Assembly: GCA_018970325.1 (NCBI GenBank)
Contig: JAGWWP010000003.1
Coordinates: forward strand, 15,737-79,736
DNA length: 64,000 nucleotides
Origin: Cyanobacteria bacterium REEB446
GTDB lineage: Bacteria; Cyanobacteriota; Vampirovibrionia; LMEP-6097
Reading direction: 5' to 3'
How positions within the stretch are numbered: the first letter of the stretch is position 1; each line of letters begins with the position of its first letter. Of the stretch, positions 1-64,000 are shown piece after piece. The translations under genes and the position numbers were made by a program. The notes beneath the pieces were generated by a model, which was given only the letters and a program-made list of their open reading frames with translations, made no database searches and had not been told where the DNA came from.

Positions 1-55
1 TCGCGTGTCGCAAAGGACGACGAAAACGCAGAAATTGGAGTTCGGCTACAGTGCC
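1..55 (+). repeat. R1: core-containing element copy (GGCACTGTAGCC-type terminus), possibly cut by the window edge
   Basis: Exact core GAAAACGCAGAAATTGGAGTT at 23-43, followed by CGGCTACAGTGCC. Supplies the cobA stop codon. Confidence 0.85.
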
Positions 56-861
56 ATAATATGCTTGCCTAATACAAGTATACTTGGGCTAACAAAATTT
101 TCCTTTAAAGCTAGCTCTGGAATCTCTTTCACAGTTGAATATATAACTTTCTCTTTATCTAAAGTACCAGACTGTATGAGGATTGCAGGCATTAAATTTA
201 TTCGAGATAAATTCTCTTGTAAACCATTCATTAATAAACCTTCTCTAATCTGTGCAAGCTTATATAAACCCATATAAACTAGCAGGGTACCACCAGTCAT
301 TAAAAAAGCAGACCACGATTGAAACTTTTCATCACTTAGCTCATGTGCACTGACTATCATAACTGCATCACTTTTTTTCCTCAGAGTCAGAGGGATACCA
401 AGCGAGACTGGCACCGACAATCCACTTGTAAGACCAGGTACTATCTCCACCTGATATCCAGCATCTTTAGCTAACTGCATTTCCTCTACACCACGAGCAA
501 ATATAAAAGGATCTCCCCCTTTTAGACGTGCAACTTGCTTTCCCCGAGAGAGTTTCTCTAGAATCAAAGCATTAATATCATCTTGAGTTATATGCTTTTC
601 CGAACATTTTTTGCCGACATAAATCAGCTCAGTCTCTTTCTCTGATAGCCTTACTGTACATTTTTCAGTGATCTTAGATTGAAAAAAAACATTTCCAGAA
701 GCTTGCTTGAACAGATAATCTAAAATTTCAGTACTAACTAAATTATCGTAGAGAACTGTGTCCACTGCATTTAATAAGTTAATTGCTTTTAGCGTAAGTA
801 ACTCTGGGTCACCCGGCCCTGCACCGATAAGAAATAATTTTGCTCTTCTTTCTTCTGTCAT
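46..861 (-). CDS. cobA: uroporphyrinogen-III C-methyltransferase (SUMT)
   Basis: N-terminus LFLIGAGPGDPELLTLKA is typical of tetrapyrrole methylases. Last gene of the sir-cysH-sirC-cobA operon. Its TAG stop (46-48) lies inside repeat copy R1. Confidence 0.88.
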   Translation of the reverse strand: MTEERRAKLFLIGAGPGDPELLTLKAINLLNAVDTVLYDNLVSTEILDYLFKQASGNVFFQSKITEKCTVRLSEKETELIYVGKKCSEKHITQDDINALILEKLSRGKQVARLKGGDPFIFARGVEEMQLAKDAGYQVEIVPGLTSGLSVPVSLGIPLTLRKKSDAVMIVSAHELSDEKFQSWSAFLMTGGTLLVYMGLYKLAQIREGLLMNGLQENLSRINLMPAILIQSGTLDKEKVIYSTVKEIPELALKENFVSPSILVLGKHIMAL

Positions 862-883
862 GTAAGCAGTTTTATCACCAAGC

Positions 884-1534
884 TTAAATATTCTTTTCTT
901 TTTTACGCTCTAAAGAGGCTTTAATCCTAGCATTGCGTAAATTTTTAAAAGCTCTTTTTGTAAACCAGTTTATTAATTTTGAACGCCGAGGGAAATCCTC
1001 TTCTGATACTATTTTCGCCTGTACCTGCAAGCGAAACTCATTTACTATCTCGACTACATCTTTATACCTTTGCTCAATGAGCATACTTAAATCTTCTCTG
1101 AGTTTACGTGCGACACTAGGAGCCTTTCCATTAGTACTAATAGCTACTTTAATAGAACCACTATTGATAATACTTGGGACATAAAAATCACAATAATCAG
1201 GCTGATCTACTGAATTAGCAAGTATCATCTGATCGCGACAGCGAGTGACTATCATATTATTAATCTCAGGATTATCAGTCGCAGCTATCACGATAAAAGC
1301 TCCGACTTCATCCCCATAGGCGTAATCTCTTTCTAAAAAATCTATTTTCCTAATATTCGGAAATTCACCACGACACTCACGAATCTCGTCTATGATCTTA
1401 GGGGAAATAACGGTAAGCTTGGCTTCAGAAGCTAAAAGTCCCTGTAATTTTTGTAAAGCAATTAAGCCTCCGCCTATAATCAAAACCTTTTTATTATCCA
1501 GTTTTAAGAAAATTGGGTAAAGTGGGTTAGACAT
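884..1534 (-). CDS. sirC: precorrin-2 dehydrogenase / sirohydrochlorin ferrochelatase (CysG-N/Met8/SirC-like)
   Basis: N-terminal Rossmann motif KVLIIGGGLIA. Size and position between cysH and cobA fit this call. Confidence 0.8.
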   Translation of the reverse strand: MSNPLYPIFLKLDNKKVLIIGGGLIALQKLQGLLASEAKLTVISPKIIDEIRECRGEFPNIRKIDFLERDYAYGDEVGAFIVIAATDNPEINNMIVTRCRDQMILANSVDQPDYCDFYVPSIINSGSIKVAISTNGKAPSVARKLREDLSMLIEQRYKDVVEIVNEFRLQVQAKIVSEEDFPRRSKLINWFTKRAFKNLRNARIKASLERKKEKNI

Positions 1535-2280
1535 TAAATCACAAATTCCCCGCCCTGCTCAACTTCATGATCCTGTACATGAAGTCCGCATTCTATTTTA
1601 TCCTTACCAGCCCATCGACTATTTTTACGATCAGAGCCTATACTGGTACACGGCTTGCAGCCAATGCTCTCATAACCATTATCCAGTAATGGGTTATAGG
1701 GAACAGAGTTCTCGTGGATATACTTCCATATATCTGAGCGAGTCCATTTAATAAGAGGGTTAATCTTGCCTAATTTAAATTTTTTATCATACTCAAAAGC
1801 CAAAGCCTTGGCTCTATGCTCAGTTTGCTCACGTCTAATAGAGGTGATCCAAGCAAGCTTACCATCAAGCAATCCCTGAAGCGGAGCTAATTTGCGCATA
1901 AAGCAGCATTGGTCTGGATCACGCTCATAGAGCCTTTCACCATATTTTAAATCTTGCTCTAAGACACTAAGAGCAGGATGGTGCATTAAAATCTCAAAAT
2001 TATATTTTTCTTCTAATCTATCTTTCAGCTCTAGAGTTTCTTGAAATTGATAACCAGTGTCTAGATTAGCGATAGTGAAAGACTTAGCTTCTATAAGCTG
2101 ATTCTTAACCAAAGTATGCAGCATAGCCATAATGACACAGCCCTCTGGACCAAAGGCTGTCAGGAAAAGTATTTGACCATGCTTAGATAATTCATTTAAA
2201 GAATATTCTAAAACTTTTATCGCAGAAGAATCCTCGAACTGATTTCCTAAGGAGTTCCAATCAATAGCTTCGTTAGGCAT
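1534..2280 (-). CDS. cysH: adenylyl-/phosphoadenylyl-sulfate reductase (thioredoxin-dependent, Fe-S type)
   Basis: PAPS_reduct fold. C-terminal ECGLH motif plus a CC...CxxC cysteine set (DQCCFMRK, GCKPCT). Overlaps sir by 8 nt. Confidence 0.9.
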   Translation of the reverse strand: MPNEAIDWNSLGNQFEDSSAIKVLEYSLNELSKHGQILFLTAFGPEGCVIMAMLHTLVKNQLIEAKSFTIANLDTGYQFQETLELKDRLEEKYNFEILMHHPALSVLEQDLKYGERLYERDPDQCCFMRKLAPLQGLLDGKLAWITSIRREQTEHRAKALAFEYDKKFKLGKINPLIKWTRSDIWKYIHENSVPYNPLLDNGYESIGCKPCTSIGSDRKNSRWAGKDKIECGLHVQDHEVEQGGEFVI

Positions 2281-5886: not shown

Positions 5887-5891
5887 TAGAG

Positions 5892-8765: not shown

Positions 8766-10025
8766 ATATTTAACTATTTTCTCGGCAGCATCACCATTTC
8801 CATAGAATAAAGAATGGAGCTGCGGGCGAACTTCTGCTTGACTATTATTCATCAAGCGAGAGATAAGACTCTCTATTGCAAGTTTAATACTTTTAGAATC
8901 AGGACTTAGTCTCTCACTTAGACCCTGCTCTAAATATTCCTCTCTCTCTGCCTCCTCACGCATAACAAGAGTATATTTACTTAGATAAGCGGCTTCCTCC
9001 TGAACACCACCACTATCAGTAATTATAAAAAATGCATTCTGCATCAACTGTATAAACCCACAGTAAGTGACCGATTCCAGCAAATGAAGCCCTGAGATAT
9101 TCATAGATAATAGCTTTTCAGATAATTTTAAAAAATTCTCTCTTGCCTGCGGGTTAGTATGCAAACATACAACAAATTCGAGCATTTCTTGAGCATCTAG
9201 CGAAACTCCTATTTCCGCATTTGAGATTAACTCATTTTTAAAATTTCTTTCGCTTTTTTCTTTAAGAATTTGCAAAATACTCTTACAAAGTGCTTCCTGA
9301 AATCCATTATTAATATTCTCTCGTCTATGACTAGTGATTAAAATATATTTTTTATCTAGCTTAAATTCTTTCCTGGAACCCTGTTCAAGAATAGTAAAAT
9401 TTTTAAATTCAAAATCCTTACTATTAATTATGCTTTGAGCTTTAAAAAGAGCATCTATGCCTGTATTCCCAGTATTAAATATATTATGGGCGTGTAGCGA
9501 AACTCCAATTTCTGCGTTTTCATCGTCCTCATGATCACCGCTCCTCTTTTCTCGAATAAGTCTCTGATAGACCTTTTCACTAGGACAAAAATGATAATCC
9601 GCAATTTGACTAATAACACGCCGAGACAGTTCTTCTGGAAATGGGCTTCTGGGGTTAACTGTTCTTAAACCAGCTTCTACATGAGCGACTCTAATATGAT
9701 TATAAAAGGCTGCTAAAGCAGCCTGCACAGCACTTAGAGTATCTCCCTGCACTATAACTAAATCTGGTTTTTCTCTGCGAAACAAGAGATCTGCCTCAGT
9801 AAGAAGCTTTGCCGCTAACTCTGCAAGAGTATGTCCTTGATTCACTAGATTAAATTCATAATCTGGTCGTATACCCCAAAATTCCAGAAGATCACTGAGA
9901 ATGAGTTTATTGTGCTGGTTGGTGTGTATCCACTTAACTTCATGGCACTGCTTTTGAAACTCCAGATATACGGGTGCTAGTTTTATATATTCAGGTCTAG
10001 TACCGACTATAATAAAAATTTTCAT
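8739..10025 (-). CDS. wecB: UDP-N-acetylglucosamine 2-epimerase carrying two in-frame repeat insertions
   Basis: Matches MKIFIIVGTRPEYIKLAPV, VQGDT, HVEAGLRT and TDSGGVQEEA. Repeat-encoded DHEDDENAEIGVSLHA and SNAEIGVSLDA segments interrupt conserved blocks. Confidence 0.9.
   Translation of the reverse strand: MKIFIIVGTRPEYIKLAPVYLEFQKQCHEVKWIHTNQHNKLILSDLLEFWGIRPDYEFNLVNQGHTLAELAAKLLTEADLLFRREKPDLVIVQGDTLSAVQAALAAFYNHIRVAHVEAGLRTVNPRSPFPEELSRRVISQIADYHFCPSEKVYQRLIREKRSGDHEDDENAEIGVSLHAHNIFNTGNTGIDALFKAQSIINSKDFEFKNFTILEQGSRKEFKLDKKYILITSHRRENINNGFQEALCKSILQILKEKSERNFKNELISNAEIGVSLDAQEMLEFVVCLHTNPQARENFLKLSEKLLSMNISGLHLLESVTYCGFIQLMQNAFFIITDSGGVQEEAAYLSKYTLVMREEAEREEYLEQGLSERLSPDSKSIKLAIESLISRLMNNSQAEVRPQLHSLFYGNGDAAEKIVKYLIHVTLFN
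9191..9225 (-). repeat. R2: degenerate half-element inside wecB
   Basis: gagcatctagcgaaactcctatttccgcatttgag matches about 27 of 33 positions of the terminus-plus-core consensus. Encodes SNAEIGVSLDA. Confidence 0.7.
9488..9536 (-). repeat. R3: half-element (terminus, core, acidic arm) inside wecB
   Basis: gggcgtgtagcgaaactccaatttctgcgttttcatcgtcctcatgatc, with an exact core. Encodes DHEDDENAEIGVSLHA. Confidence 0.92.
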
Positions 10026-10056: not shown

Positions 10057-11292
10057 GTGGTTCAAGTTTCTTTAAATAAAATATCTAAAAAATATGATGA
10101 AAATTACATCATTAAAGACATCAGCCTAGAGTCTCAAGATAAAGAGTTTATAGTTTTAGTAGGACCTAGTGGTAGTGGTAAAAGTACGATTATTAGAATA
10201 ATTGCAGGATTAGAAGGTGATTTTGAAGGTGAATTAAAATTCGCTGGGGAAACCGTAAATGACTTAGCTGCAAAAGATCGTAAGCTCAGCATGGTTTTTC
10301 AGAATTATGCACTTTATCCTCATAAAACAGTTTTTGAGAATATCGCCTTCCCTTTAGTAATTAAATCTGAGCCTAAAAATCTAATTAAAGAAAAAGTACA
10401 TAAAGTAGCAGAGAAGCTTGATTTAATGAAATATCTAGAACGCAAACCTGGGCAGCTTTCTGGCGGGCAAAAGCAGAGGGTCGCCGTGGCGAGAGCGCTA
10501 ATTAAAGAACCGCAGCTTTTTTTAATGGATGAACCCTTAAGTAATCTTGATGCGAAGTTAAGAACCTCTACCAGGCAGGAAATACGTAAGCTTTATCAGG
10601 AATTAAACAGTACTTTTATCTATGTAACTCATGATCAAATCGAGGCTATGAGCCTTGGCGATAGAATCGCCATACTACATGAAGGTAAGATACAGCAGTT
10701 TGATACTCCATCCAAGATATATCATGAACCCGCAAACACTTTTGTTGCGAGCTTTATCGGCTCCCCCCCGACTAATTTACTCGAACCAAATTTAACTCTA
10801 TTTCAAGCTTTAAAAGAGGAACTGATCCCTAAACTCAATCGCGAAGATTTAATCATCGGTATTCGCCCAGAGTATTTATATTTAGCAGCAGAAATTGGAG
10901 ATTGCGAGCAGTCCCTTGAAGGGCGTGTAGCCGAACAAACAAGTTCAAGGCTGAGGAGGACGAATGACCGGAGTGTACTAGGTGTACACGAGGATCATGA
11001 GGACAACGAAAACGCAGAAAATGGAGTTCCGCTACACGCCCTTGAGGCAGAATTAGTTAATGTTGAGAACTTAGGTGAGGAGATTCTAGTTTACGCACGG
11101 CTAAATGAAAATTCAGGCAAGCTAAATGGTAGTGAATACTTGATAGCTAAAATTAATAATGCAGAGTATATCGAATTACTTCAAGAAAAATTCAGCTCCT
11201 TAAGTCCTGAAAGTCCAGTCAAATTACAGCTATTCTTTGATCCTAAAACGATTTACCTTTTTGATAAGCGATCTAGCATGCGAATCAGTTAG
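10057..11292 (+). CDS. ABC transporter ATP-binding protein (MalK/UgpC-like) with a roughly 50-aa repeat-derived insert
   Basis: GTG start. Walker A GPSGSGKST, signature LSGGQKQRV, Walker B LFLMDEPLSNLD. The insert sits in the C-terminal regulatory domain. Confidence 0.88.
   Translation: MVQVSLNKISKKYDENYIIKDISLESQDKEFIVLVGPSGSGKSTIIRIIAGLEGDFEGELKFAGETVNDLAAKDRKLSMVFQNYALYPHKTVFENIAFPLVIKSEPKNLIKEKVHKVAEKLDLMKYLERKPGQLSGGQKQRVAVARALIKEPQLFLMDEPLSNLDAKLRTSTRQEIRKLYQELNSTFIYVTHDQIEAMSLGDRIAILHEGKIQQFDTPSKIYHEPANTFVASFIGSPPTNLLEPNLTLFQALKEELIPKLNREDLIIGIRPEYLYLAAEIGDCEQSLEGRVAEQTSSRLRRTNDRSVLGVHEDHEDNENAENGVPLHALEAELVNVENLGEEILVYARLNENSGKLNGSEYLIAKINNAEYIELLQEKFSSLSPESPVKLQLFFDPKTIYLFDKRSSMRIS
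10888..10915 (+). repeat. R4a: solo half-element (core plus GGGACTGCTCGC-type terminus) in the ABC ATPase gene
   Basis: gcagaaattggagattgcgagcagtccc is identical in type to the right end of the purH copy. Confidence 0.8.
10921..11041 (+). mobile_element. R4b: full-length 121-bp palindromic element in the ABC ATPase gene
   Basis: 16-nt TIRs GGGCGTGTAGCCGAAC / GTTCCGCTACACGCCC (15 of 16). Flanked by TTGAA and TTGAG. Core has 1 mismatch. Confidence 0.92.
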
Positions 11293-12134: not shown

Positions 12135-12169
12135 AGCACCGCTGCATAACTCCATTCCCTGCATTTTTC
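12135..12169 (-). repeat. R17: possible decayed copy in the pxpA-like/crtB convergent spacer
   Basis: agcaccgctgcataactccattccctgcatttttc is about 70% identical to the terminus-plus-core consensus. Confidence 0.4.
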
Positions 12170-12178
12170 TCAGAATGC

Positions 12179-14568: not shown

Positions 14569-15012
14569 ATGAGAATTTTTATTTTTGTTTTTTTAAGCCT
14601 CTTCTTCTTTAGTTCACTATACTTTAATTATCCAGCTTATCAAGTTCAAGCTGAGCTTGATGATGAAGTAGATATAAATGACCTTAACTCAGATAAAAAA
14701 TATTATGAGTTAGTAAATAAAAGATTTAAACCAGATCAAGATGAGTTTTACTTAGACTCTATTTATTCTTTAGGTGATAATAACTGGGCAAGCATATCTC
14801 GTTCAAAAGAAATCAGAGCAAGTGATTTGCATAGAAATGGCTTGAGTTATACAGTGGGTAGCCCGCTTAATGATTATTTAGTAATCGAAGAAATTATACC
14901 CTCAAAAAAATCAGTTATTATCCGTGATATAAGGAATGAGAATTTTTTCCAACTGAGAATGAGTTATGGTTCTGCTAAGTCAAGATTAATTCCTTTCGTA
15001 AATAAGAATTAA
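14569..15012 (+). CDS. hypothetical secreted or membrane-anchored protein
   Basis: ORF with a hydrophobic N-terminus (IFIFVFLSLFFFSSL). No recognisable motif. Confidence 0.4.
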   Translation: MRIFIFVFLSLFFFSSLYFNYPAYQVQAELDDEVDINDLNSDKKYYELVNKRFKPDQDEFYLDSIYSLGDNNWASISRSKEIRASDLHRNGLSYTVGSPLNDYLVIEEIIPSKKSVIIRDIRNENFFQLRMSYGSAKSRLIPFVNKN

Positions 15013-16169
15013 TCCGTATCGTAAACAAGAACTGAAGTAATTCTATATTTACCTAGTTTTTTAGAATTAGTAAAAACTGCGAGGTAATAGGTTCCAGTCG
15101 CTACTCTCCTCTCTATATTAAAATCTAAAATAGCTAAATCTGCCTCTAATTCAAGACCCTGAGAATTATAAAGACGGCCTTGTATCGCAAGTGAGGACTT
15201 TACTCTTTTGTTAGAGGGTCTTGCCATTAAAAACAGTTCGCCAGGCTCATCTACCGTGATCTTTATAATATCTACATCACCAATATAATCAATACTGGAC
15301 TTTATAGATTTTTTATAAGTATTTTTCTGAGGATTCTTTATGTTATTAATTTCTTTTCCTGCGAAATTAATAATAGAATCAGAGTTTTCGTCAATAACAC
15401 CGCCGATATGTGCAATGGATAGGCTGTAATTTACAGAAATTTGCTCTTCGCCCTGAATTACTATAATGTACTTCCCAGCGGCTAAATCATTAAAATACTG
15501 TTTAGCAGCAGAAGCATCAGCTTCTTGAATTAAATTATAATTCTGGTCATAGAGAGTAAATTTAAGGGGATAACTAGAACCCTCAAGCAGAAATTTTATA
15601 TTACCTTCTTGTTTTAAATCAAAACTAAAATAATCTGCATCACCATAATAGTTAATGGTCTTGTTAGTTACCACACCAGGAGCAACCTGTGGGTTGAGCG
15701 TAATAACTGCACTTGGATTTATATTATTAGCGACATCGTCGCTAAGACTATCTAAAGCTCGCTGCGTAACTTTCAGTGTATAAAAACTATTTAGATCACT
15801 ACGGTTATCTAATACAATAAAATACGTCCCCGCGGTAACTTCGTAAACTATATGAGAATTAGCTCCTGCACCATTATCTTTATCAAAAGTCAACAAAGTT
15901 TCGTTCTGTGTATAGAGCCTTAAATAGGGATCTACGTCACCAGAAGTTTCTATATCAAGGTAAGAATTGCCAGGCACGACAACCCTGTAAACATCAATAT
16001 CATCAGCGACCTCGAATAGACCCTGAACTTGGAAACTAGCTTGGAGATTAAAATCAAAATCTACTTTACTCTTAGGAGCGATATAATCTGGCTGATCCAG
16101 AGTAGCAAAGGAAGCCCCACAGCTAAGAAGAAAAATAATCAAAAGTAGAGTAAAAGTTCTTACTCTCAT
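15009..16169 (-). CDS. secreted (possibly lipo-)protein with repeated pre-peptidase C-terminal (PPC)-like modules
   Basis: Recurrent D.D.Y/F...V modules: DDIDVYRVVV, GDADYFSFDL, GDVDIIKITV. I prefer the start at MRVRTFTLLLIIFLLSCG (signal peptide, lipobox-like LLSC). The longer ORF to 16214 begins inside repeat R5. Confidence 0.6.
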   Translation of the reverse strand: MRVRTFTLLLIIFLLSCGASFATLDQPDYIAPKSKVDFDFNLQASFQVQGLFEVADDIDVYRVVVPGNSYLDIETSGDVDPYLRLYTQNETLLTFDKDNGAGANSHIVYEVTAGTYFIVLDNRSDLNSFYTLKVTQRALDSLSDDVANNINPSAVITLNPQVAPGVVTNKTINYYGDADYFSFDLKQEGNIKFLLEGSSYPLKFTLYDQNYNLIQEADASAAKQYFNDLAAGKYIIVIQGEEQISVNYSLSIAHIGGVIDENSDSIINFAGKEINNIKNPQKNTYKKSIKSSIDYIGDVDIIKITVDEPGELFLMARPSNKRVKSSLAIQGRLYNSQGLELEADLAILDFNIERRVATGTYYLAVFTNSKKLGKYRITSVLVYDTD

Positions 16170-16214
16170 AGCACTGTTGCCGAACTCCAATTTCTGCGTG
16201 TTCGTCGTCCTCAT
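16170..16214 (-). repeat. R5: half-element abutting the start codon of the PPC-repeat gene
   Basis: agcactgttgccgaactccaatttctgcgtgttcgtcgtcctcat, core with 1 mismatch. Creates an upstream in-frame ATG. Confidence 0.88.
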
Positions 16215-30605: not shown

Positions 30606-31511
30606 TTATAGTATCTCAGATAATTCACTAAAATCATTAATGACCTTTCTAGTTCTCTCGATAGAATTATTACTAGACGCTGATTTATCAAGATTCTCAG
30701 TATCTTTCAAAGCCTCTCTTACGACTTGTACCGTTAGCAGCCCAGCTCGTTCACTTGCCCTACATTCATCTTTAATATCAGTCAAAAATAAAATATGCTC
30801 TGGACTTACTTTAATATCATCAGCGATTTTCAAATAAGATTCATATTCTTTCTTAGAACCTATCTTAGTATCATAGAAACCAGAAAATAAATAACGAATA
30901 TCACCGAATTCAGAAAATTCAAAAAACAATCTCTGAGCTTGAATAGACCCTGATGAATAGACATAGATCGGCAAGCCTTTGCCTTTCATATTTAAGAAAA
31001 AATCAAGGGCATCTTGGTATAAAGGTGCCTTAAATAAACCTTTCCTAAAACCTTCTTGCCAGATTAATCCCTGTAAATCTTTTAGGGGGGTGATTTTTTT
31101 ATCTTCCAGACTCCAAGTTTTTAAAGCCTGAATAGCAGTATATACCTGTGTTTCAAAAACAGCATCTTGGGCGTGTAGCGAAACTCCAATTTCCGCGTTT
31201 TCGTCGTCCTCATGATCCTCATGTACATTGAGTACACTGCGGTCATTCGTCCTCCTCGGTCTTGAACTTGTTCGTTTGGCTACACGCCCATCTAAGTGCG
31301 ACAAAACTCCAATTTCTGCGTTTTCGCCCCTTTTGTTTTGCTTAAGCTCTTCTAAAGTAGCCTCAATAATAGAGAGTAAGACTGGATCATGCTCAAAGTT
31401 AGTTAATATAAAATCTTCTATTCTCTCGCTTGCATAAGGGAAAAGAACATCTTTAACAAAACTAATTGAACTAATAGTTCCTTCGATATCGGTAAGTATG
31501 GCTTTAGGCAT
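30606..31511 (-). CDS. mtnC: enolase-phosphatase E1 (methionine salvage) with a roughly 55-aa repeat-derived insert
   Basis: HAD motif AILTDIEGT. Operon with mtnD and mtnB. Contains one full 121-bp element plus an adjacent half-element. Confidence 0.85.
   Translation of the reverse strand: MPKAILTDIEGTISSISFVKDVLFPYASERIEDFILTNFEHDPVLLSIIEATLEELKQNKRGENAEIGVLSHLDGRVAKRTSSRPRRTNDRSVLNVHEDHEDDENAEIGVSLHAQDAVFETQVYTAIQALKTWSLEDKKITPLKDLQGLIWQEGFRKGLFKAPLYQDALDFFLNMKGKGLPIYVYSSGSIQAQRLFFEFSEFGDIRYLFSGFYDTKIGSKKEYESYLKIADDIKVSPEHILFLTDIKDECRASERAGLLTVQVVREALKDTENLDKSASSNNSIERTRKVINDFSELSEIL
31169..31289 (-). mobile_element. R6a: full-length 121-bp element inside mtnC
   Basis: TIRs GGGCGTGTAGCGAAAC / GTTTGGCTACACGCCC. 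Flanked by ATCTT and ATCTA. Encodes GRVAKRTSSRPRRTNDRSVLNVHEDHEDDENAEIGVSLHA. Confidence 0.93.
31296..31330 (-). repeat. R6b: half-element 6 nt from R6a inside mtnC
   Basis: gtgcgacaaaactccaatttctgcgttttcgcccc, with an exact core. Encodes GENAEIGVLSH. Confidence 0.88.
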
Positions 31512-35062: not shown

Positions 35063-35110
35063 GGGCACTATTGCTGAACTCCAATTTCTGCGTTTTTGGC
35101 AATAGTGCCT
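35063..35110 (-). repeat. R8: short hairpin form (stem-core-stem) in the trmFO / AAA-ATPase divergent spacer
   Basis: Perfect 11-bp stem GGCACTATTGC / GCAATAGTGCC encloses the core (1 mismatch). Confidence 0.9.
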
Positions 35111-43399: not shown

Positions 43400-45094
43400 A
43401 TGAAAAAAAAGGCTTTAATTTCTGTTTTCGATAAATCTAAGTTAGAAGAACTTTTAGAAGTTCTTGATACTGAATATGATTTTATCAGTAGCTCTGGCAC
43501 AGCGACTTTCATTAAAAATGCTGGTTATAAGGTAACTGAGGTTCAGGATCTTAGTAATTTCCCCGAAATACTTTCAGGCAGGGTGAAAACATTACATCCG
43601 AAGATTTTTGGAGCCATTCTTTATGACAGAAATAATCACCAGCACTTAGAAGAAATAGAAAAAGAGAATATAGTATCTATAGACCTTGTTATCGTTAATC
43701 TTTATCCTTTCGCAGAAGTTACCAAAAACCTTTCATTGAGTGGCACTGACTTAAATGGGACTGTAGCCAAACGAACAAGTTCAAGGCTGAGGAGGACGGA
43801 GGATCATGAGGACGACGAAAACGCAGAAATTGAAGATTGCGAGCAGTCCTATGCTGATTTAGATATAGCTATAGAAAATATAGATATAGGCGGACCAAGC
43901 CTTTTAAGAGCAGCTTCTAAAAATTTCAGGCACGTTATTACACTGTCTAATCCTGATCAATACGATGCTTTTACTGAGAGATATAAAAGTAAATCTCTAG
44001 ATCTAAATTACAGAAAACAGCTAGCTGCTGAGACTTTCAGAATGACCAGCGCCTATGATGCTGTAATAGAAAGATTTCTAGCTCAAGCTAATGCTGATTC
44101 GTTTAAGACTAATGCTGAAATTGACTTGACGGCAGAGAATTTATTACCAGAAAAGCTTACTTTAAATTTAGAAAGAGTTAAAACCTTAAGCTATGGTGAA
44201 AACCCTCATCAGCAGGCTGGTCTTTATGTAGAATCTAATTCAAAATATAGAGGGCTTGCTGATGCAAATAAACTACATGGAAAGGATCTAAGTTTTAATA
44301 ATTTACTTGATCTTTCTGCTGCCTATAACATCGTCCAAGAATATGGTCCAGAGATTCCTTGTGCCGTTATCGTTAAACACAATAATCCTTGCGGTGTCGC
44401 TATAGCTCCAAATATCACTTTAGCCTTTATAGAAGCCCTTGCAGCAGATTCTGTAAGCGCATTTGGTGGAGTGGTAGCTTTAAATAATCCCGTAGACATA
44501 GCTCTAGCAAATGAATTAAGTCAAATTTTCCTAGAAGCAGTTATAGCTCCGAGCTTCACCCCTGAAGCCTTTGCGATACTTACCCAGAAGAAAAATATCA
44601 GATTAATAGAGCATCCTAATTTTAAAAATTCTCAAAATCTTTTAGATATTAAAAAAATTGATGGTGGTTTCCTTATACAAACAGCTAATCATCAGCTTAT
44701 AGACCAGACTTTATTAAAAACCGTTACTAAGACGAGCATAGACGAAAGCCTGTGGGTGGATCTCATACTAGCTTTAAAAGTGGTTAAGCACGTTAAATCT
44801 AATGCTATAGTGACGACTCAAGGCGGCAGGACACTGGGAATCGGTGTAGGTCAGACGAATAGAGTGAAGTCAGTAGAAGATGCTCTGCGTAATTTTGATT
44901 TAGATACTAGGGGAGCAGTTATGGCTTCTGATGGTTTTTTCCCATTTGCTGATAATATACACCTTGCTGCCCAAAACCATATAGCTGCGATTATTCAACC
45001 AGGTGGTTCTATTCGTGATGAAGAAGTTATTAAAGCCTGTGACGAATTAGGGATTGCGATGGCGTTTACACATATAAGGCATTTTAAGCATTAA
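43400..45094 (+). CDS. purH: bifunctional AICAR formyltransferase / IMP cyclohydrolase with a 31-33 aa repeat insert
   Basis: MGS-like N-terminus (ALISVFDKS, RVKTLHP) and AICARFT domain. Insert VAKRTSSRLRRTEDHEDDENAEIEDCEQS. Confidence 0.93.
   Translation: MKKKALISVFDKSKLEELLEVLDTEYDFISSSGTATFIKNAGYKVTEVQDLSNFPEILSGRVKTLHPKIFGAILYDRNNHQHLEEIEKENIVSIDLVIVNLYPFAEVTKNLSLSGTDLNGTVAKRTSSRLRRTEDHEDDENAEIEDCEQSYADLDIAIENIDIGGPSLLRAASKNFRHVITLSNPDQYDAFTERYKSKSLDLNYRKQLAAETFRMTSAYDAVIERFLAQANADSFKTNAEIDLTAENLLPEKLTLNLERVKTLSYGENPHQQAGLYVESNSKYRGLADANKLHGKDLSFNNLLDLSAAYNIVQEYGPEIPCAVIVKHNNPCGVAIAPNITLAFIEALAADSVSAFGGVVALNNPVDIALANELSQIFLEAVIAPSFTPEAFAILTQKKNIRLIEHPNFKNSQNLLDIKKIDGGFLIQTANHQLIDQTLLKTVTKTSIDESLWVDLILALKVVKHVKSNAIVTTQGGRTLGIGVGQTNRVKSVEDALRNFDLDTRGAVMASDGFFPFADNIHLAAQNHIAAIIQPGGSIRDEEVIKACDELGIAMAFTHIRHFKH
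43757..43850 (+). mobile_element. R9: 94-bp internally deleted element inside purH
   Basis: Left arm gggactgtagccaaacgaacaagttcaaggctgaggaggacgga joins directly to ggatcatgaggacgacgaaaacgcagaaattgaagattgcgagcagtcc. It lacks the central palindrome. Confidence 0.9.
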
Positions 45095-45132
45095 GGACGT
45101 GTAGCGAAACTCTAATTGCTGCGTTTTCGCCC
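45095..45132 (-). repeat. R10: half-element filling the purH/prfB convergent spacer
   Basis: ggacgtgtagcgaaactctaattgctgcgttttcgccc, core with 2 mismatches. Starts 1 nt after the purH stop and ends 3 nt before the prfB stop. Confidence 0.85.
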
Positions 45133-45135
45133 GCC

Positions 45136-46267
45136 TTATGACCCTGTTTTAAACTTTAAAAACTCTCTAATAAATTCATCTAAAACTTCCGTACCGTTAA
45201 TTACAGCATCAACATCACGGGTCTCATACTTAGTTCTGTGATCCTTAACTCTTCCTTCGTCAAAGACATAGGAGCGAATAGCATTTCCCCAAGAAGCATT
45301 CAAAACTTCTCCTTTAAGCTCAGCGAGCTTCTTCTGCTCTTCCTCTTCCTGTAAGGCTAGCAGCTTAGATTTAATCTGTTCTATAGCTCTATCTTTATTT
45401 TGAGCTTGGCTGCGCTCTTGAGTACATTTCACAGCAAACCCAGTAGGTATGTGCCTTACCCTAACAGCTGTCTCGACTTTATTTACATTCTGTCCGCCCG
45501 CTCCACCAGAGCGCATAGTAGTAATTTCCAAATCAGATTCTTTAAAACCTTTTAGTTCAGTAGAACTATCTATTACAGGACAGACTTCAATCCCCGCAAA
45601 ACTGGTCTGCCTGCTATCAGCAGAAGATTTAAATGGAGATTTGCGCACTAGCCTGTGAACGCCTTTCTCCGCTGAAAGATAACCATAGGCATAAGGACCA
45701 GAAATTTTTAAAGATGCTGATTTAATCCCAGCTTCCTCGCCATCAGATTTATCTAAAAGCTCTACTGTAAAGCCTTTCGTTATCTCCGCCCAGCGTGTAT
45801 ACATTCTTAAAAGAATCTCTGCCCAATCCTGAGCATCAGTACCACCAGCTCCAGCATTGATATTTATAATCGCAGATGATTTATCATAATCCCCAGACAT
45901 CATCAGGAGAAACTCATAGTCCTCTAATTCTGTTAATAATTTAAAATATTCTTCGCGAATTAATTCATCTAGATCCTGCTTTTCGAATTCTTCCTCTGTC
46001 TCAGCTAGCATCTCCTGCATAGCTAAAAAATCTTCTAGACGCCTTGCCCAAGAGTCTATTTTATCTATCTGCTCTTTTTTAAAACTAATCTCTTTGGATA
46101 TAGCTTGAGCCTCGCTGACATTATTCCAAAAGCCCTCGACTAAGGTCTTCTCCTCTAAAATCTTTAATTCTTCTTTGAGCTCATTAAGGTCAAAGACACT
46201 CCTTGATTGAATTATATTTACTAGAAATTATCTCGGAATCTATAGCTGTTTGAAGATATTCTGGCAT
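45136..46267 (-). CDS. prfB: peptide chain release factor 2 (requires a programmed +1 frameshift)
   Basis: SPF and GGQ motifs. A 25-codon upstream frame ([25 protein letters not shown]) ends at CTT TGA C. The +1 frame then continues DLNELKEEL... into the long ORF. Confidence 0.9.
46189..46204 (-). promoter_or_regulatory. prfB +1 programmed frameshift site
   Basis: On the minus strand: AAGGAG (SD-like), TGT, then CTT TGA C. Same architecture as the classical RF2 autoregulatory site. Confidence 0.85.
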
Positions 46268-46304: not shown

Positions 46305-46349
46305 GGGACTGCTCGCAAACCTGCAATTTCTGCATTTTTGAGCAGTCCC
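46305..46349 (-). repeat. R11: short hairpin form upstream of prfB
   Basis: Perfect 10-bp stem GGGACTGCTC / GAGCAGTCCC around a diverged core (cctgcaatttctgcattttt). Flanked by ACGTT and ATGTT. Confidence 0.85.
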
Positions 46350-53722: not shown

Positions 53723-54976
53723 ATGCAAGCTTTAGCGAAGGAAACTATTCCCATTCACTGGAATCATGAAAACAGGTCTGTATCTATCATCGACCAAACT
53801 CTTCTACCTTATGAATTAAAGTGGGTAGAAATAAAGACTTATGAGGCGATGGCAAATGCTATTGAGAATATGCTTCTACGTGGAGCACCTTTAATCGGCA
53901 TCGCTGCTGCATATGGCATGGTACTTGCTTTACAGGAATTTATAGAGACTAACGCTCGTTATCACAGTTTAGAAAAAGATCATGAAAACAATGAAAATAT
54001 AAAAAATGCTGCTCTGAACCAGTCTTTAGAAGATAGATTAATTAATTTTCTAAACCAAGCCTCAAATAGACTACTTTCGACACGCCCGACTGCGGTAAAT
54101 CTAGCTTGGGCATTAGGAGAAATGGCAGCCACTATTCAAAAAAATCACAAAGATGAAGCTCTGCAATCGTCACTTGAGCAAAATACTTACTTGCAAAAAC
54201 TACACCAAATACTTTTAAATAAAGCTCTCTGGATTCAAGAAGATGATTATAATCGCTGCAAAGCAATGTCTGAACATGCTTTAGCTTTAGTAAAAAAGGA
54301 TTTTGCTGAAAAAATTAAAACACAAGGTGATAAGGTGGTTGAACAAACAGGTAAATTAAATGTTCTCACTCACTGTAATGCTGGCGCCTTAGCTACTGGC
54401 GGCTATGGCACTGCTTTAGGCTTAATCAGAAGTTTACATCGCGAAGGCTTACTTAATATGGTTTATTCTGACGAAACTCGCCCTCGCCAGCAGGGTTCTC
54501 GCCTCACCGCTTGGGAATTAGCACAGGAAGGCATTCCAGTCACTATGATCTGCGATACTATGGCAGGTTTTATGATGAATAAAGGAATGATAGACCTAGT
54601 AGTAGTAGGTAGTGATCGCATTACTGCAAATGGTGATGTCGCTAATAAAATAGGTACTTACCAAGTAGCGATTCTTGCAAAACATCACCAAATACCTTTC
54701 TATGTCCTAGCCCCAGAAAGCACTATAGATTTAAATTTAAAGACTGGCCATGAAATCGAGATAGAATATCGAAACACAGAAGAGGTTAGCCACATAAATG
54801 GCAAAGCCTGCACTTTTATTAAGAGGAACGACGAAAACGCAGAAATTGGAGTTCGAGAACAGTGCCGAGACTTAAATTCCGTTACTGAGGTGATGTTCCT
54901 TAACCCTGGCTTCGACGTCACTCCAAATTCATTAATTAGTGGAATAATTACAGAAAATGGCATAATCGGTATGTAG
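53723..54976 (+). CDS. mtnA: S-methyl-5-thioribose-1-phosphate isomerase
   Basis: IF-2B family blocks: RGAPLIGI, THCNAGALAT, VGSDRITANGDVANKIGT. Carries an in-frame half-element (NDENAEIGVREQC). Its TAG stop is supplied by full-length element R13. Confidence 0.9.
   Translation: MQALAKETIPIHWNHENRSVSIIDQTLLPYELKWVEIKTYEAMANAIENMLLRGAPLIGIAAAYGMVLALQEFIETNARYHSLEKDHENNENIKNAALNQSLEDRLINFLNQASNRLLSTRPTAVNLAWALGEMAATIQKNHKDEALQSSLEQNTYLQKLHQILLNKALWIQEDDYNRCKAMSEHALALVKKDFAEKIKTQGDKVVEQTGKLNVLTHCNAGALATGGYGTALGLIRSLHREGLLNMVYSDETRPRQQGSRLTAWELAQEGIPVTMICDTMAGFMMNKGMIDLVVVGSDRITANGDVANKIGTYQVAILAKHHQIPFYVLAPESTIDLNLKTGHEIEIEYRNTEEVSHINGKACTFIKRNDENAEIGVREQCRDLNSVTEVMFLNPGFDVTPNSLISGIITENGIIGM
54823..54866 (+). 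repeat. R12: half-element inside mtnA
   Basis: gaggaacgacgaaaacgcagaaattggagttcgagaacagtgcc, with an exact core. Encodes RNDENAEIGVREQC. Confidence 0.9.
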
Positions 54977-55087
54977 CCGAACGAACAAGTTCAAGGCTGA
55001 GGAGGACGAATGACCGCATTGCACCAAGCGTACATGAAGATCATGAGGACGACGAAAACGCAAAAATTGGAGTTCCGCTACACGCCC
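54967..55087 (+). mobile_element. R13: full-length 121-bp element at the 3' end of mtnA
   Basis: Flanked by a perfect 5-bp direct repeat ATAAT (54962-54966 and 55088-55092). The right TIR is intact and the left TIR is mutated (CGGTATGTAGCC). Its peptide frame is still open. Confidence 0.92.
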
Positions 55088-55117: not shown

Positions 55118-56101
55118 ATGAAAGTAGAACTTTTGACTGAAGAAAAAACCAAACTACCTATATTTCCAGATATTACTATCGAAACGAAAGCACAGATTAC
55201 AGGTACTTTAGAAAAAGTTGGGATGGAGAAAGTTGAACTTGCTCTTAAGCTTCAATCTAGTAAAGGAGAAATCACTCAAATTCCAGCTTTCGCAAACCTT
55301 TATGTCAGCCTAGATGCTCCTCATAAGAAAGGGATACATATGTCTAGGCTCTTATTACAAGCACATAAGACTTTTGATGAAGAGGCTTTAAGCTATGAAT
55401 CTCTTGGGGATTTAGTTAAGAAATTAAAAGAATCTCATGCAGATATGAGTTTAAATGCTTTTGTTGAAATCGAGTTTGATTATATGTTACGCAGACCAGC
55501 TCTAGTGAGCGATAACGATGCTTGGAGATCTTACCCAGTGGTTTTAAAAGCTGAGATAAACCATGTAGATGAAATATCCTTCACGACCAGCATTCGAATA
55601 ACCTACTCTAGTACCTGCCCTTGCTCGGCAGCACTATCAAGACAGCTTATACAAGAAGAGTTTTTAAAAACATTTGGGGATAAAGCTCCTAGTGTTACAG
55701 ATATATATAACTGGTTAGGTAAAGAAGAAAGCCAAGTAGCTACTCCTCATAGTCAAAGAAGCTATGCTGATGTAGATTTTCTGCATACTGGAGAGTCTAA
55801 ACTTAGTGGGACTGCTCGCAAACGTAAAAGTTCAAGCGAATCCCTCAATCTAGATGAGATGATAGATGGTCTAGAAAAGGCTATCTCTACACCGGTACAA
55901 GCAGCTGTCAAAAGAGAAGATGAACAAGAGTTCGCTAGGCTTAATGGCAGAAACTTTATGTTTAGTGAAGATGCTGCAAGAAGATTAAAGTTTTTCTGTG
56001 AGAGCCTAGAATACCTTTCAGATTTTAGTATTAAAGTACAGCATTTAGAGAGTCTTCATGCACATAATGCCGTAGCCTTTGCGAGAAAATCATCTAGCTG
56101 A
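55118..56101 (+). CDS. folE2: GTP cyclohydrolase FolE2/MptA family
   Basis: GIHMSRL, STCPCS, PHSQRS and ESLHAHNAVA blocks. Contains a degenerate left-arm repeat fragment. Confidence 0.85.
   Translation: MKVELLTEEKTKLPIFPDITIETKAQITGTLEKVGMEKVELALKLQSSKGEITQIPAFANLYVSLDAPHKKGIHMSRLLLQAHKTFDEEALSYESLGDLVKKLKESHADMSLNAFVEIEFDYMLRRPALVSDNDAWRSYPVVLKAEINHVDEISFTTSIRITYSSTCPCSAALSRQLIQEEFLKTFGDKAPSVTDIYNWLGKEESQVATPHSQRSYADVDFLHTGESKLSGTARKRKSSSESLNLDEMIDGLEKAISTPVQAAVKREDEQEFARLNGRNFMFSEDAARRLKFFCESLEYLSDFSIKVQHLESLHAHNAVAFARKSSS
55808..55843 (+). repeat. R14: left-arm fragment inside folE2
   Basis: gggactgctcgcaaacgtaaaagttcaagcgaatcc versus the purH left arm gggactgtagccaaacgaacaagttcaaggctgagg. 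Encodes GTARKRKSSSES. Confidence 0.6.
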
Positions 56102-57018: not shown

Positions 57019-57037
57019 AACTCAGAGGAAATAAATT

Positions 57038-59063: not shown

Positions 59064-59068
59064 ATTAA

Positions 59069-59854: not shown

Positions 59855-59889
59855 GCTTAAAAGCCTTAAGTAAAGAAGAGGATAAGCAT

Positions 59890-61220: not shown

Positions 61221-62618
61221 TTAACTTCTATGGACTAAATCGCCCCCCACATAAACCTCTTTAACTCTAGTCTTCTCTGCATCTAAAATTAAAGCATAAG
61301 GATCTACAGAATCCAAATCTAAATTGTCATCCATCACCTCAAAAACCACGTAATCAGCATACTTAGAGTCTTCTAGGCTGCCGATCTTATCATCCATGCC
61401 TATAGCTTTAGCAGCAGAGCTAGTTAATAATTCATACTGCCGCTGAACTCCAATTCCTGCGTTTCCCGCACTCCCTACGTTCTCAACAAGCAGTTTTAAC
61501 TCTGATCTTAAATCTAAATCATAATTAGAAGCTTTACTATCAGTTCCCAAGCCGTAATTCACACCATGAGACTGCTCCCAAAGAGGAATTTTCGCCATAT
61601 TATGCTTTAAAAACTGATTACTGCGGGGGCAACTAACTAAAGAAATCTCAGGGTGATTAACAAGCTCTTGAATCTCATTCTCTGAGAGATTTATAGCATG
61701 AGTTAATAAATATTTAAGAGACCGCGAGCATGCTCCATTCCCTGCACTAAGTACGTATTTCTTAAAATAATCCCAAGATGACTCAGCCTGTTTTCTATAT
61801 CTTTTCTTCAAATCCAAGACTCCAAGTGATTCCCAGAAATCATAAAGTAACTCTAATTCTTTATCTTCATTTATTAATAAACCTTCCATATCATCGGGCG
61901 TAAGATGATACTTCTGCAAAGCTCTATCTCCAGTATTGTGATTACGCTCAAAATCTACACCTCTAAAATACTTCTCCTCTAACTCATCTTCTGCGAAGTG
62001 CATTAATAAAAGAGGCAATATGTGAGACGCAGAAGAATCTTTAGCTAGAAATACCTGTATCTCTTCGAGTAATTCGCTAGAAACACTGTATAAAGAATGT
62101 GGTGAAAAAGCGAACTGAATTTTATGGCTCTGTATCATCAGCCTTAATTCTTCTACCGCCTTATTTAAAATACTTTTAGCTTGTTGTGGATCAGAACCGA
62201 AGAGCTCAAGTCCAATAATTCCTCTTAAACCAGTTTGCTGAAAAGCTTTTACGCTTGCATCTAAGTGTGAAGTATTATCTACTAAAAATGTTGTACCTGT
62301 ACTAAGTGCAAGTCTTGCTCCAGCTAGGCTTGCACTTACTGGATCGAAAGATTCATTTTGAACTTTATGCATTAAATCTTTTAACCAAGCAAAAAGATTT
62401 TTAGGCTTTAAATCTAAATGCGTATATGCAAGATGTGAGTGTAAATTTATAAATCCTGGTGAAATTATCTGTTTTTTGGCTAGGTTATCTGGTGTATTTA
62501 TTTCAGATAAGGCTGATACATTAGCTATATAACCATTTTCTGAGTTGATTTTAGCGTTTTTGACTAGTTCTTTTGAGTTCCTGATTATTATATTCTGGGT
62601 ATATTGATCTAGTACCAT
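61221..62618 (-). CDS. amidohydrolase-superfamily protein (deaminase/chlorohydrolase-like)
   Basis: Metal-binding HxH (FINLHSHLAY) and a C-terminal D motif region. Carries a degenerate repeat copy (GSAGNAGIGVQRQ). Confidence 0.7.
   Translation of the reverse strand: MVLDQYTQNIIIRNSKELVKNAKINSENGYIANVSALSEINTPDNLAKKQIISPGFINLHSHLAYTHLDLKPKNLFAWLKDLMHKVQNESFDPVSASLAGARLALSTGTTFLVDNTSHLDASVKAFQQTGLRGIIGLELFGSDPQQAKSILNKAVEELRLMIQSHKIQFAFSPHSLYSVSSELLEEIQVFLAKDSSASHILPLLLMHFAEDELEEKYFRGVDFERNHNTGDRALQKYHLTPDDMEGLLINEDKELELLYDFWESLGVLDLKKRYRKQAESSWDYFKKYVLSAGNGACSRSLKYLLTHAINLSENEIQELVNHPEISLVSCPRSNQFLKHNMAKIPLWEQSHGVNYGLGTDSKASNYDLDLRSELKLLVENVGSAGNAGIGVQRQYELLTSSAAKAIGMDDKIGSLEDSKYADYVVFEVMDDNLDLDSVDPYALILDAEKTRVKEVYVGGDLVHRS
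61436..61475 (-). repeat. R15: degenerate half-element inside the amidohydrolase gene
   Basis: catactgccgctgaactccaattcctgcgtttcccgcactc, core with 2 mismatches. Encodes GSAGNAGIGVQRQ. Confidence 0.75.
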
Positions 62619-62642
62619 AGCTTTTAGCTTAACACCAACAAA

Positions 62643-62972
62643 ATGTACGATATTATGCTTGAATTAGAAATTGTCCGGAATGAAGAGAAACATCTTGAAA
62701 TTGAGGTGGGTGGGCAATTGCTTTATAGTGAGGCTGAGAAATTTAAAGAGACTATTCTGCCATACTTAAAAGAACAGAATAAAGTAACCATAGATTGTAA
62801 AAGATTAGATTTTATTGATAGTGCGGGAATGGGTTCTTTTGTAAGACTCTGGAAAGAGTGTAAAATCATTGGAGCGGACCTTGAATTTCAGAATGTGGTA
62901 GATCACGTTCAAAACCTTTTAAAAATCGCAAGGTTACACCAATTAACAAGTATTAGTTCCCAGACTAGCTAA
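62643..62972 (+). CDS. STAS-domain anti-sigma-factor antagonist-like protein
   Basis: SpoIIAA-like size (109 aa) and a DFIDSAGMG phospho-serine motif. Confidence 0.75.
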   Translation: MYDIMLELEIVRNEEKHLEIEVGGQLLYSEAEKFKETILPYLKEQNKVTIDCKRLDFIDSAGMGSFVRLWKECKIIGADLEFQNVVDHVQNLLKIARLHQLTSISSQTS

Positions 62973-62973
62973 A

Positions 62974-64000
62974 GTGAAAAATAATTCTAAAACCACTGAC
63001 ACCGATAATATAGAAGAGACTGATAAAGCAAATGCAGAAAATGGACTTGTGCATCGGTCTCTAGAAGAATTACAAGCACAGCTCGAAAGCCTCACTAAAC
63101 AGCTTGAGGAAGAGCGCTTATTGAATGCAGAAAAAACTGCAATCATGGAAAAGACTTTAGCTGAGACTGAAAGATTATCTCTCTATTTACAAAACACCAC
63201 CTTCGCTTTAATGCAGGAAAGACAATCTGCCCATGCTCTTGCTGAAAGAGAAAGACTTTTAAATCAGTGGGTAGAAAAAGTTAACAGCTCACTTAACATC
63301 ACTCATATACTTAAATATCTAACTAAGCAGATGGCTAAATTCTTTAAAGTGAGTCGCTGTGGGATAGTTTTTTTACAAGGTAATAAATTTCAAGTCGTGG
63401 AGTTCTGTGAAGATGAGCATGGGCGTAACCTCGAATATAATTTACTGAAACGAGATGAATTTTTCTTTCGGATACTCAGATGTAAAAGACCTCTACAATT
63501 TGAAGAAATAAACCTTGAATACTCTAATCATTTCCTAGATGATGTTTTCTCTTTTCTTTCAGTACCCTTATTACTCAGGAACGAAGTCTTAGGCTTGATT
63601 TATTTACAAGACTGTTCAAGACACAATGACTGGCAAGATAATGATATTCAGTTATTACAAGCGATCTCTTATCCGTTAATGACAGCGATAGAAAGAGCAC
63701 GCTTATTTAAAAAATCACATGAAAGGACTAAACAAGCAGAACTCTTAAATAGCTTAACTAGCCAAATTCGCTCAAGTTTAAATCTTAAGGATATACTCTC
63801 TAGAACCGTTAACGAGTTAGGTTTTGCCGTAAAAGTCTCTCGCTGTTTCCTTTTCATGGATGATCACATTTCAGAAGAATTCTGTGCCACTGGTGTTCCC
63901 AATATAGCAGGGCAATGCAAGCATTTAATTCTCAATAAGTTAAATACTAAAGATATCTACGCGACGATAATCATCGAGAACCTGATTTCGACCGAAAATC
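62974..64000 (+). CDS. GAF-domain protein (at least 2 GAF domains), 3'-truncated by the window edge
   Basis: Not in the supplied ORF track. I translated it manually from the GTG at 62974 and found it open to the window end. Coiled-coil N-terminus, then two GAF-like blocks (VSRCGIVFL..., VSRCFLFMDD...). Confidence 0.6.
   Translation, partial: MKNNSKTTDTDNIEETDKANAENGLVHRSLEELQAQLESLTKQLEEERLLNAEKTAIMEKTLAETERLSLYLQNTTFALMQERQSAHALAERERLLNQWVEKVNSSLNITHILKYLTKQMAKFFKVSRCGIVFLQGNKFQVVEFCEDEHGRNLEYNLLKRDEFFFRILRCKRPLQFEEINLEYSNHFLDDVFSFLSVPLLLRNEVLGLIYLQDCSRHNDWQDNDIQLLQAISYPLMTAIERARLFKKSHERTKQAELLNSLTSQIRSSLNLKDILSRTVNELGFAVKVSRCFLFMDDHISEEFCATGVPNIAGQCKHLILNKLNTKDIYATIIIENLISTEN
63022..63054 (+). 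repeat. R18: possible decayed copy in the GAF-protein gene
   Basis: gataaagcaaatgcagaaaatggacttgtgcat contains the 12-nt run gcagaaaatgga, identical to R4b and R7. Encodes ANAENGLVH. Confidence 0.4.

Follow-up and report, generated by a model that had tools for sequence, protein, structure and literature searches.

The DNA analysed here is a 64,000-nt window of contig JAGWWP010000003.1 (positions 15,737 to 79,736) from Cyanobacteria bacterium REEB446, with a GC content of 36%. It contains a family of small palindromic repeats, which an earlier note on this DNA had put at 18 or more copies plus two doubtful ones; core counts, profile searches and inspection led to the same total of about 20 copies and fragments. 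The 21-nt core, GAAAACGCAGAAATTGGAGTT, was found at 13 sites when up to three mismatches were allowed, compared with 0.01 expected, and none of 100 shuffled sequences reached this number. The core is exact at 22, 9501, 31305 and 54833 and has one mismatch at six sites, both counts as previously given, and two mismatches at three sites. A profile built from full-length copies also gave 13 matches in the window at E < 0.1, and inspection added the degenerate pieces at 9190–9239, 10885–10915, 12136–12175, 46305–46349, 55808–55840, 61567–61593 and 63022–63062. Copies occur on both strands, in spacers as well as in gene interiors, in agreement with the earlier note: 13 of the 20 are in frame within open reading frames (ORFs), four extend over a start or stop codon and three are intergenic. 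For each of the size classes named before, coordinates could be assigned (121 bp, three copies; 94 bp, one copy; 45–46-bp stem-core-stem forms, two copies), and a dozen fragments, mostly right-end pieces, complete the set.

One of the full 121-bp copies (10921..11041, + strand) is in frame in an ABC-ATPase gene and is flanked by the target duplication TTGAA/TTGAG; an orthologous copy is present at locus L074 of a related genome and a shortened one at L093 (L numbers designate such loci throughout). A right-end remnant in the same gene (10885..10915, +) ends 5 nt upstream of it. The second full copy (31169..31289, −) is in frame in mtnC (enolase-phosphatase), with a right-end solo 2 nt upstream (31292..31328, −). 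The third (54967..55087, +) carries a TAG in its head that ends mtnA, has the target duplication ATAAT and corresponds to an orthologous copy in L080; mtnA also contains a right-end solo in frame (54821..54866, +). A 43-nt right-end solo flanked by TAAAA repeats is in frame in mtnB (32531..32573, −). The methionine-salvage genes mtnC, mtnD (ARD), mtnB and mtnA are located at 30606–32795 (−) and 53723–54976 (+), and three of the four carry in-frame copies.

The remaining in-frame copies are shorter forms. In purH, a 94-nt form with the central hairpin deleted (43757..43850, +) occupies the interdomain linker; at this site L083 has only the right end of the element. The wecB gene contains a degenerate right-end remnant (9190..9239, −; peptide SNAEIGVSLDA) and a right-end solo (9487..9538, −; DHEDDENAEIGVSLHA), folE2 a left-end fragment (55808..55840, +; GTARKRKSS) and a GAF-domain gene a diverged right-end remnant (63022..63062, +; KANAENGLVHRSL). 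An amidohydrolase gene has a right-end remnant in frame (61433..61466, −; NAGIGVQRQY) at a site filled by a full copy in L062, as well as a strongly diverged, doubtful right-end remnant (61567..61593, −; AKIPLWEQS). Outside genes or at their borders, a right-end solo comprising core and tail (14..55, +) provides, with its tail, the final codons and the stop TAG (46–48) of the antisense methylase gene 46..861; a degenerate short copy (12136..12175, −) lies in a convergent intergenic spacer and is absent in L073 and L074; a 46-nt stem-core-stem form (35065..35110, −) is located upstream of trmFO; and prfB is accompanied by a right-end solo over its stop codon, between convergent genes (45095..45146, −), and by a 45-nt stem-core-stem form with a diverged core upstream (46305..46349, −). 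Finally, a right-end solo (16170..16214, −) forms the 5′ end of ORF 15009..16214. This ORF encodes a secreted PPC-domain protein whose first, listed ATG lies within the element copy; its true start is probably the downstream Met that precedes the signal-peptide-like sequence MRVRTFTLLL.

The canonical element is 121 bp long and contains no gene; its asymmetric interior hardly varies and includes a small hairpin at the centre. Among 72–82 full copies from the window and the related loci, approximately 90 nt of the interior are almost invariant (AACGWRCAAGTTCAAGGCTGAGGAGGACGAATGACCGCAGTGTAC-loop-GTACATGAGGATCATGAGGACGACGAAAACGCAGAAATTGGAGTT), and the outer 13–16 nt form inverted repeats, with the termini GGSACYGYWGCNRAAC...GTTYNGCWRCRGTSCC. 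An A/T-rich direct repeat of 5 bp is present at the flanks, where at least four of five positions match in 37 of 82 copies compared with 5% in a control of mismatched flank pairs; target sites follow a loose consensus (H-W-R-A-D). The fold of the strand is a long hairpin, with z scores of −6.7 for RNA (−47 kcal/mol) and −3.5 for DNA. In a 202-bp variant (L102:6414–6615, duplication AGAGG), about 81 extra nucleotides replace the central loop, and other size classes comprise 130, 94, 75 and 43–46 nt. Internal direct repeats were evident: GAGGACGA occurs twice, GAGAC or GGGAC in the head compares with GAGGAC at column 79, and CGAAC with CGAAAAC. Deletions between these repeats account for the 75-, 94-, 43- and 46-nt classes, and the size variants (202, 130, 94, 75 and 43–46 bp) look like deletion derivatives. 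The solo half-elements of the earlier note are likewise mostly in-frame deletion derivatives. A 2.3-kb composite candidate in L045/L069 turned out to be two separate fragments flanking uvrB and not a transposon.

Confinement of the motif to the window, which had been named beforehand as counting against the finding, was not observed. An exact-pattern scan with one genome per species gave at least 109 loci, 108 of those listed being in five metagenome-assembled genomes (MAGs; DUDT01, JBJTTW01, JBMOEX01, CANHDW01 and RFQS01), i.e. more than 108 further loci. The labels of these MAGs are Vampirovibrionia, Melainabacteria, Caenarcaniphilales, 'bacterium' and (probably mislabelled) Proteobacteria. 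The family is neither restricted to the window nor an artefact of a single assembly. Synteny with the window, at 85–95% nucleotide identity, was seen for several loci and, judged by its sequence, the window represents a sixth close relative of the five MAGs. The profile matched 273 times in 0.83 Mb of sister-genome loci, which were retrieved through the core and thus over-sample right halves; all comparison genomes are MAGs. Apart from a Zixibacteria match (L004), all matches to the core among those listed were in Melainabacteria-type MAGs; L004 was rejected as a chance 21-mer, with no flanking similarity and a contig of 43% GC. The sole match in a viral contig collection (L110:3612–3665) consists of a solo copy lying in frame within the type I restriction gene hsdR, and this contig looks chromosomal and not viral.

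Searches of Rfam, of plasmid and phage collections and of the literature gave no meaningful match. An Rfam scan of the window gave no match at the gathering score, and E-value mode on one 202-bp copy returned only a chance scaRNA match (E = 8). A plasmid collection had no match, a phage search gave one negligible match of 40 nt, and the literature searched on Melainabacteria and Caenarcaniphilales repeats contained nothing relevant. A peptide search of a protein database returned short hypothetical ORFs only and no census of host proteins. In several MAGs, gene callers have annotated 'hypothetical proteins' of 33–70 aa on element copies (database matches P0001–P0049), which are probably spurious ORFs.

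Clean filled and empty sites in sister genomes showed that the element has been mobile. The window copy at 32531–32573 together with TAAAA is absent at the orthologous site in L020, 45 nt corresponding to the copy at 54821–54866 are absent in L080, and a full copy in L091 differs from a clean empty site in L006 by exactly 126 bp. At a single site in mtnC, sister populations have zero to three inserts, with proteins of 247–383 aa; the observed states are empty, a 10-aa remnant, a 16-aa solo, a solo plus a 121-bp copy, the 202-bp variant and tandem copies. Decay could be followed as well. Compared with the full copy in L086, only the right end is present in L085, 99 nt having been lost with the junction in an ACGA microhomology, and L093 has lost 129 nt between two cores when compared with L074. 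Deletions between short internal direct repeats give rise to the 94-, 75- and 43–46-nt forms and to many of the right-end solos, and within genes only in-frame deletions persist.

Copies also tend to adjoin one another. Among 77 complete copies, 15 (19%) follow the tail of an older right-end fragment at a distance of 2–8 nt (mode 5), as at 10885–10920 in the window and at L102:4362–4406. The tail of the adjacent fragment resembles the copy's own tail more closely than expected by chance (9.7 vs 7.5 ± 0.4 matches of 14; none of 2000 resamplings was as high). At L100:1745–2164 (−), three full tandem copies lie about 11–12 nt apart by profile coordinates, with AGGAGG flanks, and are followed by a right-end solo. 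This adjacency suggests re-insertion at element ends or decayed tandem dimers.

Approximately 55% of the copies are located within long open frames. When profile matches were assigned to stop-free, stop-to-stop frames of at least 300 nt, 116 copies were in sense frame 0, three in other sense frames and six in antisense orientation. Of the sense frames, frame 0 alone is free of stops (GTVAERTSSRLRRTNDRSVLGVHEDHEDDENAEIGVRQQS); it encodes a hydrophilic peptide with acidic and basic residues, GxVAERTSSRLRRTNDRSVLxVHEDHEDDENAEIGV..., an example of a predicted insert-encoded peptide being HEDHEDDENAEIGV; one antisense frame is open as well, but its peptide is hydrophobic and rich in Cys, His and Phe, and few copies use it. 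Complete copies with 3n+1 lengths (46, 52, 58, 82, 121, 130, 202, 214 and 262) are often within ORFs, and no sense ORF contains any of the 13 copies that belong to classes 44, 57, 63, 75, 84, 122 and 192. A length of 3n+1 plus the 5-bp duplication keeps the frame, 121 + 5 being 126 and therefore a multiple of three. Outside ORFs, 28 sense and 13 antisense copies were counted between co-directional genes. As both orientations occur there, the extreme orientation and frame bias within genes is best read as the result of selection rather than of an insertion preference.

The host genes encode ordinary enzymes, among them WecB, an ABC ATPase, MtnA, MtnB, MtnC, PurH, FolE2 and an amidohydrolase. 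In comparison with solved structures of PurH (4EHI) and an MtnB-like protein (2IRP), the inserts are positioned between aligned blocks. An AlphaFold model of the window MtnC, based on a shallow alignment of 16 sequences, gave pLDDT values above 90 for the host fold and approximately 30, without secondary structure, for residues 62–110 in the insert, which lies between two helices; the MtnC insert is thus predicted to be a disordered loop. Insertions in frame 0 would be tolerated as disordered surface loops in housekeeping proteins, since 121 + 5 is divisible by three and a single hydrophilic sense frame is free of stops, and other phases and the antisense orientation would be purged; the pattern is observed and selection would be its cause. 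Splicing or translational bypass of the inserts was judged unlikely, as frame and length are strictly constrained.

A protein domain could be ruled out as the common feature: conservation is at the nucleotide level and includes third codon positions, as the earlier note had argued, some copies are intergenic, and orthologous sites differ in whether they hold a copy.

The terminal repeats differ between copies and nevertheless remain complementary. Among 75 distinct full copies, we counted 39 distinct heads. Double compensatory changes were present in 12 of 14 stem pairs, and 96% of cells were paired vs 81% in shuffles; none of 500 shuffles reached the observed values and no slid register came close. 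The central hairpin covaries too. Because the ends vary and yet stay complementary, their pairing appears to matter for mobility. Between species, orthologous copies showed seven one-sided stem changes and no compensated one (a small sample), so complementarity seems to be kept in propagating lineages and not repaired in place. Propagation would then need paired ends, through either a folded single-stranded stage or recognition of structure. Mismatch types gave contradictory indications about the folding strand, G-T exceeding A-C by 48:28 in the terminal stem (p = 0.03) and the ratio being 0:7 in the central hairpin.

No mobilising gene had been seen in the window before, and this holds: Pfam scans of all substantial ORFs revealed no transposase, RAYT, Y1 domain or reverse transcriptase. 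A search for multicopy ORFs in approximately 0.83–0.9 Mb of related DNA likewise gave no transposase candidate and turned up ABC-ATPase paralogues only.

Taken together, the repeats are likely to be miniature transposable elements with inverted repeats (MITEs), i.e. non-autonomous DNA transposons, specific to one Melainabacteria lineage (Vampirovibrionia/Caenarcaniphilales). The family is previously undescribed and has every testable hallmark of a MITE with the exception of a parent insertion sequence (IS): terminal inverted repeats of 16 bp with 88–96% of stem positions paired in the 72–82 full copies, a target-site duplication of fixed length (5 bp), small size (43–202 bp) at about 20 copies per 64 kb without coding capacity for a transposase, and mobility documented by filled and empty orthologous sites. 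Duplications of this kind, fixed at 5 bp, are left by DDE-type enzymes, and for this reason we prefer a trans-acting DDE transposase as the enzyme that would move the element. Such a transposase, encoded elsewhere, would make 5-bp staggered cuts at the loose H-W-R-A-D targets and so generate the duplication.

Several observations weigh against a MITE family moved in this way. Neither the window nor the approximately 0.83 Mb of sister loci contained an autonomous element or a transposase with these ends. When metagenomes were scanned for a 20-mer that is specific for the 202-bp variant, about 10 true matches were obtained, all of the 202 type and without an autonomous parent; one of them was truncated by a contig end, and the remaining matches were unrelated high-GC contigs. 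MITEs usually have conserved ends and a free interior, and the variable ends and conserved interior of the present element are the reverse of this pattern. A DDE transposase acting on duplex DNA would not need its two ends to pair, and their covariation is unexpected for such an enzyme. Right-end solos outnumber left-end fragments (112 vs about 25), which deletion explains only in part, and the repeats flanking solos vary in length (2, 5 and 11 nt). Core-based retrieval biases the counts to right halves. In addition, gene membership was defined by stop-to-stop frames and not by curated genes. A tentative idea that would accommodate the ends is that the mobilising machinery reads the conserved asymmetric interior together with a sequence-independent paired stem of folded DNA or RNA, combined with a fixed 5-bp staggered integration; we consider this doubtful, and we know of no characterized bacterial transposition system that combines the reading of a folded strand with a fixed 5-bp staggered cut. 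If true, the 3n+1 (+5) length rule and the single hydrophilic frame would be adaptations of a transposon to residence within genes that evolved independently of the elements in Rickettsia.

Alternative explanations have to account for the same duplication, ends and placement. The earlier note had drawn a comparison with REP/REPIN elements, which a RAYT (HUH/Y1) transposase moves in the form of single-stranded hairpins. This is an improbable route, as it is expected to produce no target duplication: IS200/IS605-type HUH transposition leaves none and, to our knowledge, neither do REPINs, whereas the present element has one of 5 bp. The long hairpin, the compensatory changes between the arms, which also occur in REPINs, and GTAG in one terminal subfamily (GGGCGTGTAGCC) are features in common with dispersed REP/REPIN-RAYT repeats (PMC3116915; PMC3733652). 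The presence of GTAG in the termini, noted before, is correct for that subfamily only; other copies have GTTG, GCTG or GCTC in its place. Furthermore, the ends pair with each other and not within themselves, so that they are not REP palindromes, which would be units of 20–40 bp at each end with a conserved GTAG (or CGTC) head, and they are the variable part of the element, whereas those of REPINs are invariant. REPINs are extragenic and tied to a RAYT gene flanked by their conserved REP ends (PMC3116915; PMC3733652), whereas most copies here are intragenic, and the HUH...Y pattern was absent from 1003 ORFs of about 0.9 Mb (a weak negative). Of the distinguishing REPIN features that could be tested (location outside genes, lack of a target duplication, a conserved GTAG head and palindromic REP ends), none was found, and the likeness proposed in the earlier note is therefore not upheld. 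Unlikely as well is a small retro-mobile element, in which hairpin RNA would be reverse-transcribed into nicked targets to give 5′-truncated copies, a type of route that Elhai et al. 2008 reportedly put forward for very small dispersed repeats in Nostoc. It would explain why the 3′ (right) end is retained in many copies whose 5′ truncation points vary, why the repeats flanking solos differ in length, and the mild sense bias of non-ORF copies (28:13), although antisense copies do exist outside ORFs. The terminal stem's modest sense-strand excess of G-T over A-C mismatches (48:28) fits too, but is opposed by the bias in the central hairpin (0:7). Other observations oppose it: full copies carry the fixed 5-bp duplication, deletions between internal direct repeats fit both the peak of truncations at column 79 and the other size classes, one such deletion was seen at an orthologous site, and the window has no reverse transcriptase.

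A structured RNA or regulatory motif of benefit to the host (terminator or mRNA stabilizer), or a selected peptide module, instead of selfish DNA, is very unlikely. In its favour, 35 copies outside ORFs lie between convergent genes and only four in divergent spacers, the fold is stable and covaries, and the encoded peptide recurs in many proteins. Against this, more than half of the copies are located in enzymes unrelated to each other and at positions that are not homologous, close relatives differ in which copies they have, as at the mtnC site with its zero to three copies, and conservation at the nucleotide level extends to third codon positions. Moreover, the decay of resident copies is uncompensated, disorder is predicted for the insert and no Rfam family matches. 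An assembly or binning artefact caused by chimeric reads or collapsed repeats has a negligible probability. It is true that all sources are MAGs and that repeats of this kind commonly break assemblies, but independent assemblies of five species contain orthologous copies with diverged flanks and intact reading frames.

Among known systems, the MITE family resembles most in its behaviour the Rickettsia palindromic elements (RPEs), reportedly described by Ogata et al. 2000, and we regard it as an analogue of these and not as a member. Precedent for small elements in frame within genes is provided by the RPEs, which are also non-coding, approximately 100–150 bp long, bounded by terminal inverted repeats, able to fold into a long hairpin and present in many copies, many of them lying in frame, by way of a single open frame, within conserved housekeeping genes; the host proteins apparently still function and no cognate transposase is known (PMC2229807; PMC10969869). 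In the present family, 116 of 125 ORF-embedded copies are in one open frame. Unlike the RPEs, it is found in an unrelated phylum, and no similarity in sequence would be expected. Its 5-bp duplication is clear, whereas Table 1 of PMC2229807 gives that of RPEs as '?'. Variable, covarying terminal repeats around a fixed interior also distinguish it, and Melainabacteria sister genomes differ at many sites, so that movement postdates their divergence.

With bacterial MITEs such as Correia/NEMIS, ERIC, RUP and Coxiella QMITE1/2, the element shares small size, inverted-repeat termini, a target-site duplication, hairpin-forming transcripts, occasional in-frame ORF fusion and size variants (PMC2229807; PMC5896051). 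Those families are mainly intergenic, whereas about half of the copies here are intragenic. Typically, their duplications are TA or others, and their termini are conserved and correspond to a known IS (PMC2229807; PMC5896051), in contrast to the 5-bp duplication and variable termini of the present element, for which no parent IS was found. A further comparison is with very small mobile repeats in a cyanobacterial lineage. For Nostoc, Elhai et al. 2008 reportedly described small dispersed repeats (SDRs) of 21–27 nt, whose structure is borne out by compensatory changes and whose insertions are nested or adjacent, as here; SDRs are not known to have inverted-repeat termini or a fixed duplication, or to reside in frame in genes.

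A MITE family of this kind would be a second large case of selfish DNA within protein-coding genes, in a host unrelated to Rickettsia, and, with ends that covary around a fixed interior, it poses the question which feature is recognized by the mobilising enzyme. As the MAGs are 85–95% identical and differ at many insertion sites, they permit allele-by-allele studies of how insertions are tolerated and of how proteins evolve through them. The elements also form a dense set of strain markers for a poorly known lineage, and they will break up assemblies, inflate protein lengths and yield spurious 'hypothetical proteins' of 40–70 aa.

Further features of the window are listed for completeness. The classical site of programmed +1 frameshifting, CTT TGA C, is present in prfB (RF2) at 46189–46195 (−), with an AGGAG-like sequence ahead of it; ORF 45136..46020 as listed covers the downstream frame only. 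A type III restriction-modification pair at 3997–8765 (+) is devoid of element copies and consists of Mod, with N6_N4_Mtase and EcoP15I C-terminal domains, and Res, with ResIII and endonuclease domains. A flagellar cluster (rod protein, FliE, FliF, FliH and FliI) is located at 56186–61197 (+) in this genome of a non-photosynthetic cyanobacterial sister lineage, and besides the flagellar and methionine-salvage genes the window carries genes of sulphate assimilation. At approximately 32–35 kb, gene orientation changes from mostly minus to mostly plus and the GC skew changes sign over the following 10–15 kb; this may be a replication origin region.

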